A stretch of DNA of 64,000 nucleotides from a virus (lineage: Duplodnaviria; Heunggongvirae; Uroviricota; Caudoviricetes). Below, in pieces: positions 4,249 to 63,882 of the stretch (within the stretch, counting starts at the first letter, position 1; the number at the start of each line of letters is the position of its first letter). Location: IMG/VR virus record IMGVR_UViG_3300045988_003495; one strand, given 5' to 3'. The notes beneath the pieces are model-generated. The model made no database searches. It saw nothing but the letters and a program-made list of their open reading frames with translations, and was not told the origin of the DNA. The position numbers were made by a program, and so were the translations under genes.

Positions 4249-4423
4249 TCAATGAATCTATGTTTGTAGCCCTAACCTTTTCACGTTCATCGTTAAGATA
4301 ATCATCAAGAGCCTTTTCAATCTGTGAATCATCTTGACAGATAACTGTAAAGACTGTAAAGCCGTCTGTATCGTCAATTATCTTACCATAACCGCTTCTG
4401 GGATGTAACTTTTTAAGAGCCAT
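4211..4423 (-). CDS. hypothetical protein
   Basis: 70-aa ORF, overlaps neighbours at both ends. Confidence 0.3.
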   Translation of the reverse strand: MALKKLHPRSGYGKIIDDTDGFTVFTVICQDDSQIEKALDDYLNDEREKVRATNIDSLIDTSRKRKKKDE

Positions 4424-4424
4424 A

Positions 4425-4808
4425 TCAAATACCTGTGCAGCTTCTGTTTTCTAAGAAATACTCAACACCGTACATAGCTTTTTGCATCAAATCTTCTTTA
4501 AACTGGATACGATGATTGAGCATCGCCTGTACATCAATATCATCATGGTGTTTCTCTTTAATATTTGCAGATTGCAGGAAATACTCTGCAAGAACGCGAT
4601 ATTGATAGTCAGTCACCTTATCAGTCATCTCTGTCAAAGACTCTTCAGAGATTGGTTTCAGTAGCTCACCATTAGCTAGAGCAACACCTTTTACAATCTG
4701 GCAAGTATCTTCTGGAACACCTGATAAGTCCACATTTGGAAGTTCTGTTGCATTGACTGGTAAATTCATTGCCATAACCATTGCAGCAGCTAATAAAATC
4801 TTTTTCAT
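4425..4808 (-). CDS. secreted/periplasmic protein (hypothetical)
   Basis: N-terminal signal peptide MKKILLAAAMVMAMNLPVNA; first gene after a minus-strand promoter. Confidence 0.5.
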   Translation of the reverse strand: MKKILLAAAMVMAMNLPVNATELPNVDLSGVPEDTCQIVKGVALANGELLKPISEESLTEMTDKVTDYQYRVLAEYFLQSANIKEKHHDDIDVQAMLNHRIQFKEDLMQKAMYGVEYFLENRSCTGI

Positions 4809-4841
4809 AATGACCTCAAAGTTATATTAAATTTTGTATTA

Positions 4842-4871
4842 CATTGAGTATAAAAATAAGCTATAACACCT
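4842..4871 (-). promoter_or_regulatory. sigma70-type promoter on minus strand
   Basis: minus-strand reading ttgacaag ... tatttt with about 17-18 nt spacing, upstream of 4425..4808. Confidence 0.35.
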
Positions 4872-4919
4872 GACTTGTCAACAGATTTTATAGCTTATTT
4901 GGCAGATTTTTTATAAGGC

Positions 4920-5290
4920 TACTGCCATCCTTCCATACCAAACCCTACAGCACCGGGCCAAACCCTACCGGACCGTGCCTAACCTGACCTTGCCGTACCT
5001 TACCAAACATCGCTTAAAAACCCTCTTAGAAGACGCTTAAGTGATGTAATCGAATTTTAATGTAGCTTCGATTAACTACCCATACCTCACCTTACTTAAC
5101 CGTACCGCACAGAACCACACCAAACCTAACACCACTTCTCATCACCTTATTAAAAACCCTGTTTAAAGACCTTTTAAAAAGATGAGTCTCATTTTAATGT
5201 AGATGAGACTAGCTACCCATACCCTACCAAACCTTGCCAAACCTTACCTCACCCAACTCCACCGAACCTTATTAAAAGACCCTCTTAAAG
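4920..5290. repeat. composite intergenic repeats with strongly G-depleted (CA-rich) plus strand
   Basis: units of TTAAAAACCCT...AAGAC, hairpin with conserved loop TTTTAATGTAG (stems aatcgaa/ttcgatt at ~5052-5078 and gagtctcat/atgagact at ~5183-5211), then CTACCCATACC plus CA-rich tract; inverted repeat catcgcttaa/ttaagtgatg at 5010-5048. Confidence 0.6.
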
Positions 5291-5291
5291 A

Positions 5292-5320
5292 CCTTTTAAA
5301 AAGGAGCCTCCGAAGAGGCT
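5292..5320 (-). terminator. rho-independent terminator for 5332..5772
   Basis: minus-strand agcctc-ttcg-gaggct hairpin followed by T-run. Confidence 0.6.
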
Positions 5321-5331
5321 ACCTAGTCAAC

Positions 5332-5772
5332 TTAGAAAGGTTTTCTACGTTGCTTGTTAATGTTAGCTTTCATAGCAGCTAAATGGTTTTGCTGTTCAAT
5401 CAGTCGTGAACGTTCTTGATGGCTAAGTGCCATAGTGTTCACATTCTCAATCGCTTGAGTGGCTTGCTTTAAAGCTCGACCAATCTTACCAGACATTTTA
5501 CGTTTTGCAATAGTTGCTTGATGCTTAGGTTCAACAACACGATAACCAACACCCATTGAAGCAACCAGATAAATCTTCTCTTCTTTAAGAAGCTTCTCAA
5601 TAAACTTCTCAAGTCGGTTTAGACGTGTAAGTGCATAAGCCTTCATTTCATCTTCGTACTTAACAATGTCACCTTGATAAGTTGGCTTCACAATACCTAA
5701 GAAGGTATCCATCTCAGAGTGTGATACAGTGTCGCCGTAACTAAACTTTGCTGCTAATGCTTTTGTATTCAT
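5332..5772 (-). CDS. hypothetical protein
   Basis: 146-aa ORF followed by its own terminator. Confidence 0.5.
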   Translation of the reverse strand: MNTKALAAKFSYGDTVSHSEMDTFLGIVKPTYQGDIVKYEDEMKAYALTRLNRLEKFIEKLLKEEKIYLVASMGVGYRVVEPKHQATIAKRKMSGKIGRALKQATQAIENVNTMALSHQERSRLIEQQNHLAAMKANINKQRRKPF

Positions 5773-5774
5773 AA

Positions 5775-6380
<606 letters not shown>

Positions 6381-6439
6381 TTAGTTGATTGTTAAGTTGT
6401 TTGTAAAGAACCCTCAACAGAAGACTCTTTAGAAACTTG

Positions 6440-6575
6440 GTAGATTTTTAACGTGGCTACTACCATCCACCCATACCTCACCTAACAACACCTAACAACA
6501 CAAAACTACACCCCACACCACCGCACCACACCAAACATCACTTAAAAAACCTCTTAGAAGACTCTTAAGTGATGC
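6440..6575. repeat. second copy of composite CA-rich element plus 10-bp perfect inverted repeat
   Basis: ctaccatccacccatacctcacc... G-depleted tract, then catcacttaa/ttaagtgatg hairpin at 6533-6571; same family as 4920-5290. Confidence 0.55.
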
Positions 6576-6639
6576 TGGTGAGTACCCGTTGGTTTATGCT
6601 GCTCAGTATACTCACCAAATTTTCTATGTCAACAACTTT

Positions 6640-7740
6640 TTATTCATAATCCCTAATAACGAGACCAACAGGGAACTGTAAAGACCCCTTACGAGTCATC
6701 TTCTGGAACTGAACCGTTAAAGGCTTCCCGATAAACTCTTCAGGATGTTCAGCAAGATACTGTTTTTTCTCATGAGTAGTCTTCCATGAGACATCTACAA
6801 AGACGTTAGGAAGAGTCTCTACAACGAACTTACCATGACCACGTTTATCAGTCTTTACACCAGTCACTTTAAACTCTTCAGTGTGCATCTTCTTGTGCTT
6901 AATCAAGAAGTATGAACGGTGACAACACTCATAGAAGGAGTCTTCAGAGATTGAACGGTACATTGCACCTTCAAACTTAGCTTCAACCCACTTATCATGA
7001 GCTTCATCAAACTCTTCCCAAGAATTTACACGGATAGTCTGTACAGGTACAACCCTGCAGGTATCTCCAAGCTCAACGAGAGGTGAACTATCAATAACTT
7101 CACGACGCTCAGGCCAAGATTTTGAATTGTCACAGATATCATACCAGTAGAATTTAAGAAGGTGACGGTCTGGATTGTCAGCATTCTTAATCATAGATAC
7201 AATATCTTCTAAGTCCCAACCATGAGCATAAATCTCACCATCAAAGTCTTCAACTTGTGGATGTAATTTAAGCAACAAAAGCAAATCTGGGATTAGTTCT
7301 GTTGGAACGTTGTAAACAGTATTCTCACGAGAATAAGCCGTAAAACTAACTGAATCAGCATCTCTTGAAATTCTACAACGGACACCATCAAGTTTTGGTT
7401 GAGCATCAGCAGGAAATTCCAAATACTTTGCATGACTAACCTTTGCAGCATCATGAGCAAGCTGTACACCTACCTTCTCAGTATTCTGTGCAGACTCTTT
7501 TGTGTAAGCATACCCTTTACGGTCAACTTGCTTTTTATACTTAGCAGCAACTTCAAAGAGAGCTTGCTGTTCAGCATTACGCTCATTCTTTTTACCGATG
7601 TTTTTCGGTTCTGCTGTATACTCTTCAAACATCATCTTGCCATTTTCTTTACCATAGGTTGTAACAACTTTGTCACCTACAGCAACACATGACCAAACGT
7701 TGAAGGAGCCATCTTTATTTTGTTTGTACAGAATTGTCAT
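6640..7740 (-). CDS. ATP-dependent DNA ligase
   Basis: 366 aa; adenylation motif I PKLDGVRCRI (KxDGxR) plus downstream EGAMYRS and FLIKHKK motifs; size matches T7-type ligases. Confidence 0.8.
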   Translation of the reverse strand: MTILYKQNKDGSFNVWSCVAVGDKVVTTYGKENGKMMFEEYTAEPKNIGKKNERNAEQQALFEVAAKYKKQVDRKGYAYTKESAQNTEKVGVQLAHDAAKVSHAKYLEFPADAQPKLDGVRCRISRDADSVSFTAYSRENTVYNVPTELIPDLLLLLKLHPQVEDFDGEIYAHGWDLEDIVSMIKNADNPDRHLLKFYWYDICDNSKSWPERREVIDSSPLVELGDTCRVVPVQTIRVNSWEEFDEAHDKWVEAKFEGAMYRSISEDSFYECCHRSYFLIKHKKMHTEEFKVTGVKTDKRGHGKFVVETLPNVFVDVSWKTTHEKKQYLAEHPEEFIGKPLTVQFQKMTRKGSLQFPVGLVIRDYE

Positions 7741-49162: not shown

Positions 49163-49199
49163 TCGACGCAGCGGGGCTAAATAGCCCCAGATACCTCAA

Positions 49200-49228
49200 C
49201 AGCCCCTATTTAAAGGGGCTTTTTTACG
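49200..49228 (+). terminator. rho-independent terminator ending the small-gene array
   Basis: agcccct-attta-aggggct followed by tttttt; preceded by a second hairpin ggggcta-aa-tagcccc. Confidence 0.65.
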
Positions 49229-49570
49229 TCTATTGAATCCTTATACAATCCCTTTCCTTTCCTTTCCAGAATCTTACTAGACCTTAAAAGCAATAACTCT
49301 ATAGTCTACTCTATAACCTCTTATCAAATCAACTTAAATATAAGCCCATAACCCGAAAGGGAAGGGCAACCGTTTAAACGCTCTATAAAGCTCTATAACA
49401 GCCTTATCAACCTAACTTAAGGGATTGCATTAACTCACCCTTAAAAGCCCTTTATAAAGCTTCTCAGAGACTTAAAAGAATCTTATAAGGGTGTAAGCTT
49501 TATCGTCTCGTTAGTTATCTTGTGAATATCTAAAAAGGGCTTGTTAGTGTCTTAAAAGTATGTTATAGGG

Positions 49571-49636
49571 GCTATAAAGTTACGTAAAAGAGGCTATAAA
49601 GTTACGTAAAAGAGGCTATAAAGTTACGTAAATACT
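49571..49636. repeat. 22-bp tandem direct repeat, three copies
   Basis: gctataaagttacgtaaaagag x2 then gctataaagttacgtaaatact. Confidence 0.85.
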
Positions 49637-49689
49637 AGCCCCCTTAACATTCTCTTAACAATTTCTTAACAATCCCTACATAGTTATGC

Positions 49690-50230
49690 TTTTAAGGCAC
49701 TTGTTAGCAACTTGTTAGCCCCTTGTTAAATCTCTGTTAAGACCACGTAAAAGCCTTGTAAGAGTCTTTGACATAGCCTTAAAAGCTCCTGTAAAGCCCT
49801 ATAAAGAGCTATCTGTACAGTTGGGGTGTAACTACTAGGAAGAGACTTAAAAGGGGCTATACAGAGCTATAGAGAGCTTTTAAGAGGTATGTTTAAGGAA
49901 TCACTAAGAAAGGAAAGGGAACGATAAGAAAAGAGATAGTGACCATGTTAATAGCTTGTTAAAAAGATTAAACACTTGTTAGAGACTTGTTAATTATCTT
50001 AACAAAATAACTCTTAAAAATTAACTTGTTAGCTCTTGTTAGTCATCTGTTAAGAGACTATAAAGACCATGTATCGACTGTTAAGAACTTGTTACAACCT
50101 TGTTAGTTCTGTTAAGAGTCTGTTAAGACCTCTGAAGAGATGTTAAGAAGGTGTAAGGACTGTTAAGAGATTGTTAAGGATATTTTAAAATTTTGCAAAG
50201 TACTTGTAAGGGAGCTGTTAAGGGCTACCA
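49690..50230. repeat. dense iteron array of short motif YTGTTARG with about 10-11 bp periodicity
   Basis: more than 20 copies, e.g. cttgttag, ctgttaag, cttgttaa between 49690-49745 and 49935-50225; no ORF of 60 aa or more on either strand. Confidence 0.8.
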
Positions 50231-50369
50231 AGCAGATATACACCCTAATCAGATATTTTTCAGTTCCTTCAAAGACCCTAAAAAATGACTTGACAGTCTT
50301 ATTTTATAAAAATTTTAAAATTCTGAATAATTACCTAGACAGTCTTTTAAAAATACAGGTAGAAACAGG

Positions 50370-50700
50370 CTTATAAGATACCTTGTTAATACCGTGTTAG
50401 ACCTTGTGAGATAAGGTCTGTAAAGATATTCCTGTTAAGTTTGTTAAAACAGTCTATATAGAGGCTTAGTAACACCTAGTGAACACCTATAGAGAGTGTC
50501 ATAGCTTACATAGAGATTAAGAGGTGTATAGGAGCTTCTAAGAGTGTGTAGAGAGATGGTTAAGATGATTGTATAGGTTGTTTAGAAGGCTTGTTAGAAG
50601 AGTGTTTAGATGGCTATTTAGAAGGGCTATACAGAGGGCTATTAAGACCACTAGATAGTTACTAAGATACTATATAGTACTATATAACTATATAGAGAGT
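50370..50700. repeat. second iteron block (GTTAG/TTTAGAAGG motifs) ending in AT-rich tatatag repeats
   Basis: cttgttaataccgtgttag..., gtttagaagg/cttgttagaag/gtgtttagatgg/ctatttagaagg, then tactatatagtactatataactatatag. Confidence 0.6.
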
Positions 50701-50828
50701 AAGATTAAGAAGATTGTTAAGAAGGATAGATATTTTATTCACATATGATGGTGACCCAGAGGTTGGGACAACCGATAAAATTTTATAAAAATTAAAAAGC
50801 CCCCAATTAAGGAGGCTCTTAAGATATT

Positions 50829-60783: not shown

Positions 60784-60860
60784 CTCTGTTTAGCTCAGCT
60801 TGGTAGAGCGTTCCGTTTGGGGCGGTAAGGCCGGAGGTTCAATTCCTCCAACAGAGACCA
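60784..60860 (+). tRNA. tRNA-Pro (anticodon TGG)
   Basis: acceptor ctctgtt/aacagag, D-stem gctc/gagc, T-arm ggagg-ttcaatt-cctcc, encoded CCA. Confidence 0.7.
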
Positions 60861-60867
60861 AATTAAT

Positions 60868-60945
60868 GTTCCAGTAGACAAAATGGTATAGTCACCACTC
60901 TTTCAAAGTGGATATTTGAGGGTTCAAATCCCTTCTGGAACGCCA
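60868..60945 (+). tRNA. tRNA-Glu (anticodon TTC)
   Basis: acceptor gttccag/ctggaac, anticodon stem ccact/agtgg with loop ctttcaa, T-loop ttcaaat, CCA. Confidence 0.7.
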
Positions 60946-60950
60946 GTTTT

Positions 60951-61027
60951 GACAGAAGACCAATTACAGCAAACTTAATCTTATTCATCTGAAGGTAAAT
61001 CGGACAAAGAAGAGATTTGGTCTGGTC
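60951..61027 (+). ncRNA. Y-RNA-like structured element A
   Basis: 5' motif gaCAGAAGACCaattACAGCAAac pairs with 3' motif tTTGGTCTGGt (agaccaa/ttggtct) enclosing about 55 nt. Confidence 0.45.
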
Positions 61028-61036
61028 ATTAAGAAT

Positions 61037-61113
61037 TGCGGGTATAGAGAAAGGGCGTCTCACATGTCTCATTAGCATGGTATCGGCAGGTTCGACTCCT
61101 GCACCCGCCTCCA
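61037..61113 (+). tRNA. tRNA with CAT anticodon (Met or Ile2 type)
   Basis: anticodon stem catgt/gcatg, loop ctcatta, D-stem gaga/tctc, T-arm gcagg-ttcgact-cctgc, CCA; 5' end ambiguous by 1 nt (possible 1:72 mismatch). Confidence 0.6.
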
Positions 61114-61116
61114 AAT

Positions 61117-61180
61117 TTACAGAAGACCGTATGCAGCAACAAACTACTTTTTGCGGATAAAAGAAAAAACACGGTCTGGC
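61117..61180 (+). ncRNA. Y-RNA-like structured element B
   Basis: 5' tACAGAAGACCGTatgCAGCAAcaaac pairs with 3' aacACGGTCTGGc. Confidence 0.45.
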
Positions 61181-61190
61181 AATGTATTAA

Positions 61191-61267
61191 GGTTAGGAAG
61201 CACATAAGGTATGTGCGGTCGCCTGTTAAGCGAATGGCACAGGGTTCGAATCCCTGACTAACCGCCA
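61191..61267 (+). tRNA. tRNA-Asn (anticodon GTT)
   Basis: acceptor ggttagg/actaacc, D-stem gcac/gtgc, anticodon loop ctgttaa, T-arm caggg-ttcgaat-ccctg, CCA. Confidence 0.7.
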
Positions 61268-61276
61268 AATTTAAAT

Positions 61277-61364
61277 GTGTCGTTATCCCGTAGATGGTAG
61301 CGGTGGGGACTGTAAATCCCTTGTCATTGAGACTCGGTAGGTTCGACTCCTACACGGCACACCA
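61277..61364 (+). tRNA. tRNA-Tyr (anticodon GTA), long variable arm
   Basis: acceptor gtgtcgt/acggcac, anticodon stem gggga/tccct, loop ctgtaaa, 15-nt variable arm, T-arm gtagg-ttcgact-cctac, CCA. Confidence 0.7.
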
Positions 61365-61386
61365 ACACTTAGCGAGATACTTAGTT

Positions 61387-61788
61387 ATGAGAGATGAAGT
61401 ATACAAATCACAACTTGGTATGAGTTTGGGAACTGCACAAAACAGACTAGTAAAAGATTTGCTATTCGATTTTATATGTAAGACAAATCAAAATAGATGT
61501 TTTCAGTGCGGAAAAGAAATGACTAGGGATGATTTCTCTATCGAGCATAAGACTCCGTGGAGACACAAAGATAATGCAAAAGAACTTTTCTTTTCACTAG
61601 ATAACATTTCTTATAGCCACCTGCGTTGCAACATGAAAGCAGCCAGACCAGCACAGATTTATGATAGAAAGCCTAAGCCAATTAAACACGGCACTGCACA
61701 CAGCTACTCTAAAGGTTGCAGATGTGATGAGTGTAGGCTGGCTAAGAATGCTGAGGGTAGGAAGCACTATAACCCCAGAAAGGCGTAG
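61387..61788 (+). CDS. HNH endonuclease inside the tRNA cluster
   Basis: CFQCGKEMTRDDFSIEHKTPW ... CRCDEC; ORF-track start 61294 overlaps tRNA-Tyr, so ATG at 61387 preferred. Confidence 0.55.
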   Translation: MRDEVYKSQLGMSLGTAQNRLVKDLLFDFICKTNQNRCFQCGKEMTRDDFSIEHKTPWRHKDNAKELFFSLDNISYSHLRCNMKAARPAQIYDRKPKPIKHGTAHSYSKGCRCDECRLAKNAEGRKHYNPRKA

Positions 61789-61820
61789 GAAGAAGTATTT
61801 AAGAAATGGCACATAGTTTT

Positions 61821-61896
61821 GGGGTATTAGTTTAGACGGTGAAAATACGGGATTATCTCTCCTGAGCCGCGAGTTCGATTCTCACATACCTCGCCA
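61821..61896 (+). tRNA. tRNA of undetermined identity (anticodon loop ttatctc, nominal anticodon ATC)
   Basis: good acceptor ggggtat/atacctc, D-stem gttt/aaat, T-arm gcgag-ttcgatt-ctcac, CCA; anticodon loop has pyrimidine at position 37 and A at 34. Confidence 0.5.
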
Positions 61897-61954
61897 ATTT
61901 TGAGAGGGCTATTTAGCCCCTCCCTTAAAGAGTTCTTACGAGTATCCTTTAAAG

Positions 61955-62034
61955 GAGCAGAAGACCAAATACAGCAAGTTACTTAAAATTTCAAGCCAAT
62001 TCAATTTTGAAAAATTTAAAACTTGGTCTGGCTC
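61955..62034 (+). ncRNA. Y-RNA-like structured element C
   Basis: 5' gCAGAAGACCaaatACAGCAAg pairs with 3' aaCTTGGTCTGGc. Confidence 0.45.
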
Positions 62035-62042
62035 AACAAATT

Positions 62043-62177
62043 TACAGAAGACCGTTTACAGCAAAACTTAAACAATCTATTTCTCGGTAAAGAAAAGGCG
62101 AAGGTTCGATTCCTTCACTCGGCAGATGTCGAGTTGGTGTAATGGTAGCACTTAAGATGATAAACAACGGTCTGGTA
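62043..62177 (+). ncRNA. Y-RNA-like element D with embedded circularly permuted tRNA-like module (YrlA-like)
   Basis: terminal helix agaccgtt (62047-54) with aacggtct (62165-72); inside: T-arm gaagg-ttcgatt-ccttc (62100-62116), acceptor-like helix actcggc-agat-gtcgagt closed by 4-nt loop (62117-62134), D-arm gtgt-aatggta-gcac (62137-62151); no anticodon arm. Confidence 0.55.
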
Positions 62178-62278
62178 ATTATCTTTGCAGTAGCTTATGT
62201 GGCTAATTATGTCGTCCCATGAGTGCCGATGAATTTCCTTAGCATGATTCTAGATTAGCTTAGTAGGAAATGACTCTA

Positions 62279-62299
62279 CAGACCCTTTAGCAAGGTCTG
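62279..62299 (+). ncRNA. minimal hairpin sharing the CAGACC...GCAA...GGTCTG motif
   Basis: cagacc-ctttagcaa-ggtctg. Confidence 0.3.
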
Positions 62300-62326
62300 C
62301 GTAGGTTACTGCAAAGGCAATTTAAT

Positions 62327-62402
62327 GGAAGTGTAGCAGAATGGTGATGCGGCAGACTTTTAATCTGACAGGCGATGGGTTCGAATCCCTCCACTTCTAC
62401 CA
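62327..62402 (+). tRNA. tRNA-Lys (anticodon TTT), tentative
   Basis: acceptor ggaagtg/cacttct, anticodon stem caga/tctg, loop cttttaa, T-loop ttcgaat, CCA; T-stem and D-stem weak. Confidence 0.55.
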
Positions 62403-62406
62403 AAAT

Positions 62407-62483
62407 GGTTCAGTCGCAGATAAGGTAATGCAGGGGTCTCATAAGCCCTATGAATGTGGGTTCGATTCCCATCTGAACCTCCA
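62407..62483 (+). tRNA. tRNA with CAT anticodon (Met/Ile2/initiator type)
   Basis: acceptor ggttcag/ctgaacc, anticodon stem ggggt/gccct, loop ctcataa, T-arm gtggg-ttcgatt-cccat, CCA. Confidence 0.65.
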
Positions 62484-62485
62484 AT

Positions 62486-62560
62486 TGTGGGTTAGCATAA
62501 ATGGTAATGCAAACGGCTGATAACCGTTAGAAGAGGGTTCGATACCCTCACCTACAACCA
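62486..62560 (+). tRNA. tRNA-Ile (anticodon GAT)
   Basis: acceptor tgtgggt/acctaca, D-stem gcat/atgc, anticodon stem aacgg/ccgtt, loop ctgataa, T-arm gaggg-ttcgata-ccctc, CCA. Confidence 0.8.
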
Positions 62561-62575
62561 ATTTCAATAAAGTTG

Positions 62576-62604
62576 TTGACATTGATACGTGACTACTTTA
62601 TAGT
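62576..62604 (+). promoter_or_regulatory. internal sigma70-type promoter (TTGACA-N17-TATAGT)
   Basis: -35 at 62576-62581, -10 at 62599-62604. Confidence 0.55.
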
Positions 62605-62808
62605 AACCTTAGTTTTCGTTGCGTAGCGTCTATTTTGCAAATTTAAAATAAATGCAAACGACAATGTTTTTCTGGCAGTAGCTTGATAGGCTAAACACCA
62701 GTGAGGTCTTCCAATCCCTCATCAAAGAATTTGGCGTACTAGCCCACGGTATGATTAATAAGGTGGGCATCTTTAAGGGCTTTCTAAGAGAGTCTTTAAA
62801 GATAATTA

Positions 62809-62890
62809 CGGGGCGTATCTCAGCTGTCTTCTAAACAGCCGTTAACCGAGTAAGTGGAGTATGCGGGTTCGAGTCCTGCCGCCTCGACCA
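62809..62890 (+). tRNA. tRNA-like gene, possibly tRNA-Arg (anticodon TCT), atypical
   Basis: canonical anticodon arm gctgt-cttctaa-acagc, T-arm gcggg-ttcgagt-cctgc, acceptor cggggcg/cgcctcg, CCA; only 7 nt where D-arm should be, and about 23 nt between anticodon arm and T-arm. Confidence 0.35.
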
Positions 62891-63033
62891 ATTTAGTTAG
62901 CAGATTACTTAGACGACCTAAGCGGGTCTTCCTGTAGGGAGGTGGTCTGTATCTCATGTTTTCCAGAACATGTAAATAATCTGAGAAGGGGCTTTACAGT
63001 GTTGCGAAAATACGGTAAGCTTCGAATTATAGT

Positions 63034-63116
63034 GTGGGACGATGTTAAGACTCTAAGGCATGAGCAACGGCCTCCAAAACCGTTTCAAAGGGGTTCAACT
63101 CCTCCGTCCCATGCCA
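63034..63116 (+). tRNA. tRNA-like gene, possibly tRNA-Trp (anticodon CCA), atypical length
   Basis: acceptor gtgggac/gtcccat, anticodon stem aacgg/ccgtt with loop containing cca, T-loop ttcaact, CCA; D-region 6 nt too long. Confidence 0.35.
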
Positions 63117-63129
63117 AAGTCTTATTAGG

Positions 63130-63217
63130 GGTAGGTAGCGGCTAATGGCAGCCAAACAGTCTTGAAAACTGTTGCCACTGTAGAGATACGGTGAGGGTTC
63201 GACTCCTTTACTTACCG
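63130..63217 (+). tRNA. tRNA-Ser (anticodon TGA), class II, CCA not encoded
   Basis: acceptor ggtaggt/acttacc, anticodon stem acagt/actgt, loop cttgaaa, 20-nt variable arm, T-arm gaggg-ttcgact-ccttt. Confidence 0.6.
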
Positions 63218-63375
63218 CCTAATAAGATTTAAAGCCAAGCTTCATTCGGATGTTGCTTTGGTATCCCTCGTGTATTGTCGTACACGCACAGTAAAGCACC
63301 TAGTAGGTGTCACGGAGAAGAGATAATATCAAGCTCTCCAAAGGTTCTAGTCACCGGATTAAACAAGACTATGCA

Positions 63376-63396
63376 AAGACCAAATTAGGTCTTTTT
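63376..63396 (+). terminator. hairpin plus T-run inside the tRNA cluster
   Basis: aagacc-aaatta-ggtctt followed by ttt. Confidence 0.4.
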
Positions 63397-63475
63397 AGAG
63401 GGCTTCTAAGGTTATTACAGCTTGTTGTGGAACCTTGTTGCTTAGGTTCTTAGAAGTTCTCTAAAAAGATTTAAT

Positions 63476-63553
63476 GGGAGATTGACGGTAATTGGTAAAC
63501 CTACCATCCTTAGAAGTTGGTGTTTGAGGGTTCGAATCCCTTGTCTCCTACCA
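63476..63553 (+). tRNA. tRNA-like gene, anticodon arm ambiguous (possibly TAG)
   Basis: acceptor gggagat/gtctcct, T-arm gaggg-ttcgaat-ccctt, CCA; D and anticodon arms pair poorly. Confidence 0.35.
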
Positions 63554-63560
63554 AATTAAT

Positions 63561-63636
63561 GCAGGTGTAGCAAAATGGTTATGCGGCTGACTCTTAATCA
63601 GTAAGACGATGGGTTCAATTCCCTCCACCTGTACCA
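63561..63636 (+). tRNA. tRNA-Lys-like paralog (anticodon CTT), tentative
   Basis: acceptor gcaggtg/cacctgt, anticodon stem gctga/tcagt, loop ctcttaa, T-loop ttcaatt, CCA; close paralog of 62327..62402. Confidence 0.5.
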
Positions 63637-63642
63637 AACATT

Positions 63643-63718
63643 GGGGATGTAGTTTACATGGTTAAAACATAAGTTTTGCAAACTTAAGTACAGGGTTCAA
63701 TTCCCTGCTTCTCCACCA
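63643..63718 (+). tRNA. tRNA-Ala (anticodon TGC)
   Basis: G3:U70 pair in acceptor (ggggatg/cttctcc), D-stem gttt/aaac, anticodon stem taagt/actta, loop tttgcaa, T-arm caggg-ttcaatt-ccctg, CCA. Confidence 0.8.
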
Positions 63719-63724
63719 ATTAGT

Positions 63725-63799
63725 GCATCCATAGTTTAAACGGGAAAATTACAGTCTTCCAAACTGAGGTTGAGGGTTCGATTCCCTCTGGATGCTCCA
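63725..63799 (+). tRNA. tRNA-Gly (anticodon TCC)
   Basis: acceptor gcatcca/tggatgc, anticodon loop cttccaa, T-arm gaggg-ttcgatt-ccctc, CCA. Confidence 0.75.
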
Positions 63800-63806
63800 A
63801 ATTAAT

Positions 63807-63882
63807 GCTCCTATCGTATAATTGGCTATTACGGTTGCCTTGTAAGCAACTTATCAGGGTTCGAATCCTTGTGGGAGCACCA
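63807..63882 (+). tRNA. tRNA-Thr (anticodon TGT)
   Basis: acceptor gctccta/tgggagc, anticodon stem gttgc/gcaac, loop cttgtaa, T-arm caggg-ttcgaat-ccttg, CCA. Confidence 0.8.

Follow-up and report, generated by a model that had tools for sequence, protein, structure and literature searches.

What is the repetitive, G-poor DNA that occupies the gap between two minus-strand ORFs (5332-5772 and 4425-4808) of this phage? The window, the whole stretch of 64,000 nucleotides analysed here, is part of a Felix O1-like myovirus genome; with positions 4400-5800 as the query, 231 phage records matched at 90-95% identity, and nearly all belong to Felixounavirus and related Ounavirinae. The minus strand carries all genes near the array, namely those for dihydrofolate reductase and a DNA ligase (6640-7740), and small ORFs. 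Fifteen tRNA genes are clustered at 60784-63882 (+), as expected of a Felix O1-like genome. A first-pass annotation, made from the sequence without database searches, had described two full repeat units with hairpins and a strongly biased plus strand in this gap, and had proposed an R-loop-primed origin of replication, with protein-binding arrays or a structured leader as alternatives. The elements it listed are all in place: TTAAAAACCCT at 5014 and 5150, the loop TTTTAATGTAG at 5055 and 5192, CTACCCATACC at 5076 and 5213, the stems aatcgaa/ttcgatt and gagtctcat/atgagact, a 10-bp inverted repeat (5008-5017/5037-5046), a terminator (hairpin 5305-5320 with a T-run) and a minus-strand promoter, found at 4881-4853.

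The strand bias is equally real, as the share of G is 8.6% in 5047-5290 and 2-5% in the tracts, compared with 20% across the whole window. What escaped the first reading is a strict periodicity of 5 nt in the tracts, seen as CC on the plus strand and GGY on the minus strand (for example GGTTC GGTGG AGTTG GGTGA GGTAA in minus-strand reading), with C autocorrelation values of 0.32-0.39 at lags of 5, 10, 15, 20 and 25. When all 64 kb were scanned for 50-nt segments with at least five phased CC dinucleotides, only 4913-5032, 5060-5154, 5192-5296 and 6466-6540 were found, and the same scan returned no segment with phased GG on the plus strand. Across the four tracts, 50 of 51 in-phase pentamers have G as their second base and a pyrimidine as their third. 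Both units described earlier are therefore present, but the total is four, with a third at 4901-5046 (14.7% G, less G-poor) and a fourth at 6439-6574, separated from the other three by two genes.

Read 5' to 3' on the minus strand, the units share one grammar, namely a hairpin (here called H2), 10-15 GGYNN pentamers and a 34-nt tail. The TTAAAAACCCT...AAGAC box is the H2 hairpin preceding each guide (in two units also a 10-bp inverted repeat) and the CA-rich, G-poor tract complements the GGYNN guide; the plus strand is poor in G because the tracts complement a GGY-rich RNA. The pattern is far beyond chance and recurs in the 231 related phage records, and the search of relatives proposed in the first pass found the elements conserved and non-coding, not confined to a single isolate or part of a small protein gene. 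A 59-aa plus-strand ORF (5203-5382) was rejected as spurious, as a 5-nt period cannot hold a reading frame and the tract is hypervariable. A search of 4300-7000 against Rfam at a permissive threshold gave a single chance miRNA match and nothing else, and these repeats are absent from the account given in the Felix O1 genome paper.

Two preprints from 2026 (bioRxiv 10.64898/2026.04.26.720920, from the Doudna laboratory, and its companion 10.64898/2026.04.26.720927) first described VIPR (Viral Interference Programmable Repeat), a CRISPR-like, RNA-guided DNA silencing system used by phages against rival mobile elements. In the first preprint (10.64898/2026.04.26.720920), the components are Vipr, a minimal RAMP protein of ~20 kDa, an accessory protein (Vap) and the vrRNAs. 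A vrRNA is built from 9-16 YNNGG repeats, in which GGY is conserved and NN is hypervariable, and ends in an invariant 3' tail; in the SUSP1 clade this tail folds into a pseudoknot. Escherichia phage SUSP1 serves as the model; there, vipr-vap1 has one vrRNA upstream and three downstream, and the vrRNAs were detected by small-RNA sequencing and co-purify with Vipr (10.64898/2026.04.26.720920). We assign the locus at 4854-6632 (-) to type II VIPR of the SUSP1-defined clade with a probability of about 0.93, and the repeated G-poor elements, with the same probability, to the vrRNA (guide-RNA) genes of that system. The locus is an orthologue of the published SUSP1 type II VIPR locus; the feature is real, non-random, remarkable and already known.

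The order on the minus strand is promoter, vrRNA1, vipr, vap1, terminator, vrRNA2, vrRNA3 and vrRNA4, with one vrRNA upstream of vipr, an array downstream, no CRISPR array and no other cas genes. This gene order, the promoter, the one plus three vrRNAs, the GGYNN repeats and both types of tail are shared with SUSP1, as are the syntenic neighbours from DNA ligase to an HTH regulator. The two loci differ in the genus of the phage that hosts them (Felixounavirus here, Suspvirus for SUSP1) and in all four guide sequences. The operon has a sigma-70-type promoter at 6605-6632 (TTGACA, 16 nt, TATACT; 11/12 consensus matches) upstream of vrRNA1 and vipr, which is kept in all relatives examined and by its position has vrRNA1 transcribed ahead of ORF 5775-6362. 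The vrRNAs are each about 85-110 nt, with 10-15 GGYNN repeats, the conserved final GGTAT pentamer included, and a 34-nt pseudoknotted 3' tail. vrRNA1 (6439-6537, predicted length 99 nt) has a 13-pentamer guide (6473-6537) and a type-B tail (6439-6472), and its H2 hairpin lies at 6536-6574 (stem CATCACTTAA/TTAAGTGATG, loop GAGTCTTCTAAGAGGTTTT; -15.8 kcal/mol). It is followed by vipr (5775-6362), encoding a 195-aa RAMP (Cas7-like) protein, vap1 (5332-5772), encoding the 146-aa VIPR accessory protein, and the intrinsic terminator at 5296-5320, where AGCCTCTTCGGAGGCT precedes the T-run.

The remaining three vrRNAs are placed beyond this terminator. vrRNA2 (5185-5268, 84 nt) has a 10-pentamer guide (5219-5268) and a type-A tail (5185-5218) followed by CATCTTTTT, with its H2 at 5267-5304 (stem CCTTTTTAAAAG/CTTTTAATAAGG, loop GTCTTTAAGAGGGT; -10.8 kcal/mol). 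vrRNA3 (5048-5146, 99 nt) has 13 pentamers (5082-5146), a type-A tail (5048-5081) and an H2 at 5143-5187 (-11.1 kcal/mol), and vrRNA4 (4901-5009, 109 nt) has 15 pentamers (4935-5009), a type-B tail (4901-4934) and an H2 at 5008-5046 that contains the catcgcttaa/ttaagtgatg inverted repeat (-9.8 kcal/mol). The array ends in a 19-bp inverted repeat at 4854-4900 (-) (-17.2 kcal/mol as RNA), which is followed by a T-run. The loop of this repeat contains the -35 hexamer TTGACA of the promoter for gene 4425-4808, and it may be a combined terminator and operator. Gene 4425-4808 itself, directly downstream of the array, encodes a 127-aa protein with a signal-peptide-like N-terminus (MKKILLAAAMVMAMNLPVNA) and no family match.

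The covariation that the first-pass annotation had noticed in stems around a conserved loop is, in the internal units, that of the vrRNA 3' tail hairpin, and compensatory changes are indeed seen. In the type-A tail the 7-bp hairpin is 100% paired with 3 of 7 pairs compensatory, and its loop CUAC is able to pair with an upstream GUAG to form a pseudoknot, the stem of which (GUAG/CUAC) is invariant and hence carries no covariation information. Covariation in the type-B tail involves the hairpin (GGUAG/CUACC, GGCAG/CUGCC, GUCG/CGAC) as well as the pseudoknot stem (GUGG/CCAC versus AAGG/CCUU), with two compensatory pairs in each, and the observed score was reached by none of 500 shuffles. For a small sample of 6-10 sequences, these compensatory changes support the predicted tail hairpin and pseudoknot. 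The CTACCCATACC element is the complement of the last repeat and the first tail bases (GGTATGGGTAG). The conserved final pentamer GGTAT is probably part of the handle and not of the guide, because it is usually unmatched in targets.

The locus was compared with those of phages wV8, nataliec, fjerdesal, FO1a, Mijalis (Mooglevirus) and phiSUSP1 (Suspvirus). Across the three genera hardly any variation is seen in the promoter, the H2 loops or the tails. The pentamer tracts retain the GGY phase, with different lengths and almost wholly different NN, and their sequences diverge between phages whose flanks are 90-95% identical. The information content of the NN positions is ~0.05 bits over a set of 24 distinct guides, taken from 7 phages; the parser demanded G2 and Y3, hence the NN figure alone is unbiased. 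vrRNA1 is identical to that of phage nataliec, and the guide set as a whole is absent from the phage collection, the best match being vB_EcoM_D4 (90% identical, with an indel). By tblastn, vipr was found in 118 of 231 Ounavirinae records, about half of Felix O1-like phages being without vipr and vap1. Judging from partial matches and six examples, the records lacking vipr appear to keep one orphan vrRNA. The six orphans have kept the G2/Y3 phase, their guides differ between phages, and when they were compared with the satellites described below no significant targets were found.

H2 precedes every phage-borne vrRNA, with folding energies of about -10 to -16 kcal/mol. Its loop is near-invariant (GUCUUYUAAGAGGGU; GTCTTYTAAGAGGGT as read 5' to 3' on the minus strand) and is retained while the stem differs among unit types and covaries, as in wV8, where CCTCATTAAAAG/CTTTTAATGAGG is a compensatory variant of CCTTTTTAAAAG/CTTTTAATAAGG; in some relatives the loop carries a 30-nt insertion. 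The vrRNAs borne by satellites lack H2 and have a TATAAT box ~50 nt upstream instead, which points to a role of H2 in processing or termination inside the phage operon. A more specific proposal, that H2 is the signal by which individual guides are cut from the operon transcript, and that an orphan vrRNA would be usable with the Vipr of a co-infecting phage in trans or would act as a decoy, is tentative and in our view doubtful. The available text of the two VIPR preprints makes no mention of the H2 hairpin or of the orphan-vrRNA state.

The protein genes agree with the assignment. The 195-aa Vipr is 97% identical to that of SUSP1, inside the clade cut-off of >90% Vipr identity given in the preprint (10.64898/2026.04.26.720920), and the 146-aa Vap1 is 99% identical to its SUSP1 neighbour. 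Vipr has the minimal RAMP fold with an RRM core, G-loop and thumb. Ten contact residues (H17, D177, R138, W178, E71, M72, R179, C173, T175 and K33), which according to the companion preprint read G1, G2, Y3 and the skipped target base (10.64898/2026.04.26.720927), were compared and nine are identical; position 175 is V both here and in the SUSP1 sequence examined, where the preprint writes T175. The accessory gene vap1 is described as raising protection (10.64898/2026.04.26.720920). A large protein database contains 519 Vipr homologues, and neither Pfam nor PADLOC (2023) has a family or match for Vipr or Vap1. The record of Staphylococcus phage SA1 (GU169904.1, 91679-92263) encodes a Vipr 99% identical to the coliphage protein, and this 147-kb record probably contains Felix O1-like sequence from mis-assembly or contamination.

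In the published system the target is double-stranded DNA specified by the NN dinucleotides, with one base (usually at the codon wobble position) skipped between each dinucleotide and the next; target binding represses transcription, and most SUSP1-clade guides are aimed at an E. coli satellite (10.64898/2026.04.26.720920). Cryo-EM showed one protomer per repeat in a helical filament (10.64898/2026.04.26.720927), and an R-loop-like triplex is formed at the DNA target, not at the system's own gene (VIPR preprints). Both sources are preprints. From orthology with SUSP1 (97%-identical Vipr) we infer the same mechanism, expression, processing and Vipr loading for the locus in the window. Vipr protomers, as Cas7-like RAMPs, would bind one per repeat, sequester GGY and expose NN, and the exposed NN series would pair with double-stranded DNA bearing the same dinucleotides at a 1-base skip (NNx NNx ...), the skipped base usually being a codon wobble position. 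Binding would silence transcription of a competing mobile element, which in the SUSP1 clade would mainly be a ~12-kb satellite integrated in E. coli chromosomes.

When the locus was used as a query against E. coli genomes, 136 of 5,426 contained a stretch of ~90 nt that matches the tail and tract of vrRNA1. In strain EC12 this match falls within a 12-kb island, inserted in yecE, with genes for a serine recombinase, a tape-measure protein, a baseplate protein and an HNH endonuclease, and this island is the satellite. Satellites of ~12 kb occur in the chromosomes of E. coli, E. albertii and Citrobacter at yecE, at yciI-tonB or beside mdtG (e.g. L128 13100-25300); they carry serine recombinase, tape-measure and baseplate genes and sometimes an HNH endonuclease or adenine methylase. 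The satellites in which a vrRNA was located (L127-L129) have one vrRNA of their own each and no vipr. With the tape-measure protein as a query for more satellites, only four loci were obtained from IMG/VR and three from GTDB.

Twenty-six guides were parsed from the window and the six relatives and scanned against 11 satellite loci, later extended to 19. Under the 1-nt-skip rule, guides of the six relatives find matches in satellites of E. coli, Citrobacter and E. albertii, with 84-100% of their NN positions in agreement (Mijalis 26/26, wV8 18/18, SUSP1 21/22 and 19/20, as examples). For 12 of the 26 guides no more than 1 in 200 permutations of the NN order attained the observed score in the first 11 loci, and the loci added afterwards gave further guide matches. 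Long guides stayed at background level under skips of 0, 2 or 3 nt, and the skipped base fell at the codon wobble position in both controls that were phased. The published 1-nt-skip rule and the satellite targets are thus reproduced from public genomes alone.

For the guides of the window itself the matches are weaker. Within the 19 satellite loci sampled, vrRNA4 matches at 21/28 positions (reached by 4 of 200 permutations) at a site that is homologous in four satellites, covering the last codons of a 96-aa gene (...KLADKLGV stop) and the beginning of the one that follows. At this site the skipped base falls in wobble phase, one mismatch is a synonymous Leu change, and the ten 3'-most repeats match 18/20. 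vrRNA2 matches 16/18 (also 4 of 200 permutations, same 19 loci) in the satellite recombinase gene, which was not counted as a target as the base skipped there falls on codon position 1. A second vrRNA2 site, matching at 15/18 in wobble phase, lies upstream of the tape-measure gene in a gene of 71 aa. With a 3-nt skip, vrRNA2 also gave an 18/20 match (L179), which was set aside as a chance match in AT-rich coding DNA. vrRNA1 and vrRNA3 remained at background level in the 19 loci. Exact sub-pattern scans of IMG/VR gave no match for vrRNA2 or vrRNA3 and 48 chance matches for vrRNA4, the best being 24/30 in a GC-rich contig, and the same type of scan of JGI metagenomes gave 2 chance matches only. 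BLAST cannot seed on NNx patterns, and the E. coli genome set was sampled locus by locus for targets.

These results bear on the reading that survives best after the main one, namely that the VIPR locus is a partly decaying relic in which some or all of the four guides are silencing-dead, without an extant target, and vrRNA1 is degenerate. Two guides without a significant target and two borderline ones would suit a relic, as would vrRNA1, in which G1 is degenerate (TGT or AGT for GGT) in 6 of 13 repeats, and the disappearance of vipr and vap1 from about half of the Felix O1-like phages. Against this, vipr and vap1 are intact and nearly identical (97-99%) to functional SUSP1 genes with the contact residues kept, the G2 and Y3 positions hold in all pentamers but one, and the near-match of vrRNA4 stands in wobble phase at the homologous site of four satellites. 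The negative result for the window's own guides, drawn from 19 satellite loci, is weak, because the authors found targets for 20 of 41 guides in ~4,500 genomes (10.64898/2026.04.26.720920). We consider a relic highly improbable.

Much less probable still is that the repeats serve mainly as recombination substrates, mobile cassettes that move the two-gene module in and out. The comparison is with the PeSL cassettes of T4-type phages, which are repeated intergenic hairpin modules that bracket optional genes and promote their gain and loss. The likeness is evident here, where hairpin-bearing intergenic repeats bracket vipr-vap1, these direct repeats being annotated as DR_4 in wV8, and where loci differ in how many units they hold (1 to 3). 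Felix O1 and FO1a are without the gene pair and have one chimeric unit with the head of vrRNA1 and the tail of vrRNA4; in Felix O1-type phages without the pair (e.g. FO1a, L004 2410-2691) the promoter and H2 are those of vrRNA1 and the tail is of vrRNA4 type, and such phages apparently lost vipr and vap1 by recombination between vrRNA1 and vrRNA4. PeSL modules, however, consist of promoter and terminator and have neither phased repeats nor a guide function, and recombination leaves unexplained the 5-nt GGY phase with its hypervariable NN, the covariation of the tails and the satellite-gene matches under the NNx code. Recombination between units is more plausibly a consequence of the repeats than their function.

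The origin proposed in the first pass, in which a G/U-rich minus-strand transcript would form a persistent R-loop on the C-rich template and prime replication, could draw on the strong GC skew in the tracts and on the strong promoter upstream of the 6439-6537 unit. It is not supported, the tracts being in all probability guide-RNA genes, whose NN match foreign DNA in relatives. The cumulative GC skew falls monotonically through 3.5-7 kb without a turn (a weak test), and priming would want G-richness and not a strict 5-nt phase with free NN. The conservation expected of an origin is absent, as relatives carry one to four units or lose the flanked genes and the tract sequence is not conserved among them, while single copies occur in E. 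coli satellites and the SUSP1 RNA has been shown by experiment to be a protein-bound guide (10.64898/2026.04.26.720920). A likelier candidate elsewhere in the window is 49163-50828, a repeat-dense 1.7 kb with no ORF of 60 aa or more and with tandem repeats of 10-12 and 22 nt (e.g. GGCTATAAAGTTACGTAAAAGA, 2.9 copies), which is kept at 80-95% identity in 257 Ounavirinae records without functional annotation and could be a control or origin region. An R-loop origin at the VIPR locus has a negligible probability.

The alternatives offered alongside the origin fared better in part. A protein-binding array is right at the level of RNA, with one Vipr protomer expected per GGYNN repeat, and a structured leader fits the 6439-6537 unit, which lies in the leader between promoter 6632-6605 and vipr. 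A leader RNA bound by a TRAP-like ring protein, or boxA/boxC-type antitermination of downstream genes, is as improbable as an R-loop origin. On the Bacillus trp leader TRAP, a homo-oligomer, reads a triplet with 2-nt spacers in about 11 repeats, and this geometry of triplet plus 2-nt spacer is that of the tracts; the H2 loop GGUCUUUAA resembles boxA, GCUCUUUA, and many terminators of the phage are unexplained. The tracts use GGY and not (G/U)AG as their triplet, the partner protein is a RAMP and does not have the TRAP fold, and the purpose differs too, as the spacers of a TRAP site carry no information whereas in VIPR the spacers are the information. Three of the four units stand downstream of genes and a terminator, and the NN positions hold sequence information that, in relatives, matches foreign DNA. 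Two-tier G-quadruplexes, a plus-strand Rho rut site, primase recognition pentamers and a small-terminase or partition-protein array were all dropped given the protein partner, the fold and the NNx matches.

The VIPR assignment places the locus beside class 1 CRISPR-Cas, whose Cas7/Csm3/Cmr4 filaments on crRNA share with it the RAMP fold with RRM core, G-loop and thumb, one protomer per fixed step of RNA with periodic base flipping, and a variable guide capped by a constant structured handle. In contrast to those systems, VIPR has neither a CRISPR array nor adaptation genes and consists of two phage-borne genes; its step is 5 nt, of which only 2 pair, the pairing is non-contiguous with a 1-nt skip, and no PAM is needed. 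The repeats do not qualify as CRISPR, their constant parts being a 3-nt GGY and a tail in place of 25-40-nt repeats, and their pairing being gapped. The authors propose VIPR as an ancestor of CRISPR effectors (VIPR preprints).

VIPR is a newly reported form of RNA-guided DNA recognition in which a non-contiguous 2-of-5 code is read by a minimal RAMP, and its phased arrays can be spotted in raw sequence without tools. An IMG/VR scan for nine GG dinucleotides at 5-nt spacing matched at least 120 contigs, and variable GGYNN tracts were found in at least 92 unrelated contigs (GC 0.39-0.71), with two or more tracts in at least 71, indicating that the motif is widespread in viruses. GC-rich contigs have GGC as the triplet and AT-rich contigs GGT, the tracts end in a conserved sequence particular to each array (GGCAG, GGTAT or GGACT), and in one contig (L111) the tracts exceed 50 repeats; by their sequence pattern these arrays are presumably other VIPR types. 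Among the Ounavirinae the phage collection holds 118 vipr-bearing records, many more than the 13 loci from which the authors defined the clade, and the Vap1-enhanced VIPR of these phages seems to be aimed at a ~12-kb satellite. The targets of the guide set in the window would show which satellite or rival phage the source phage competes with.
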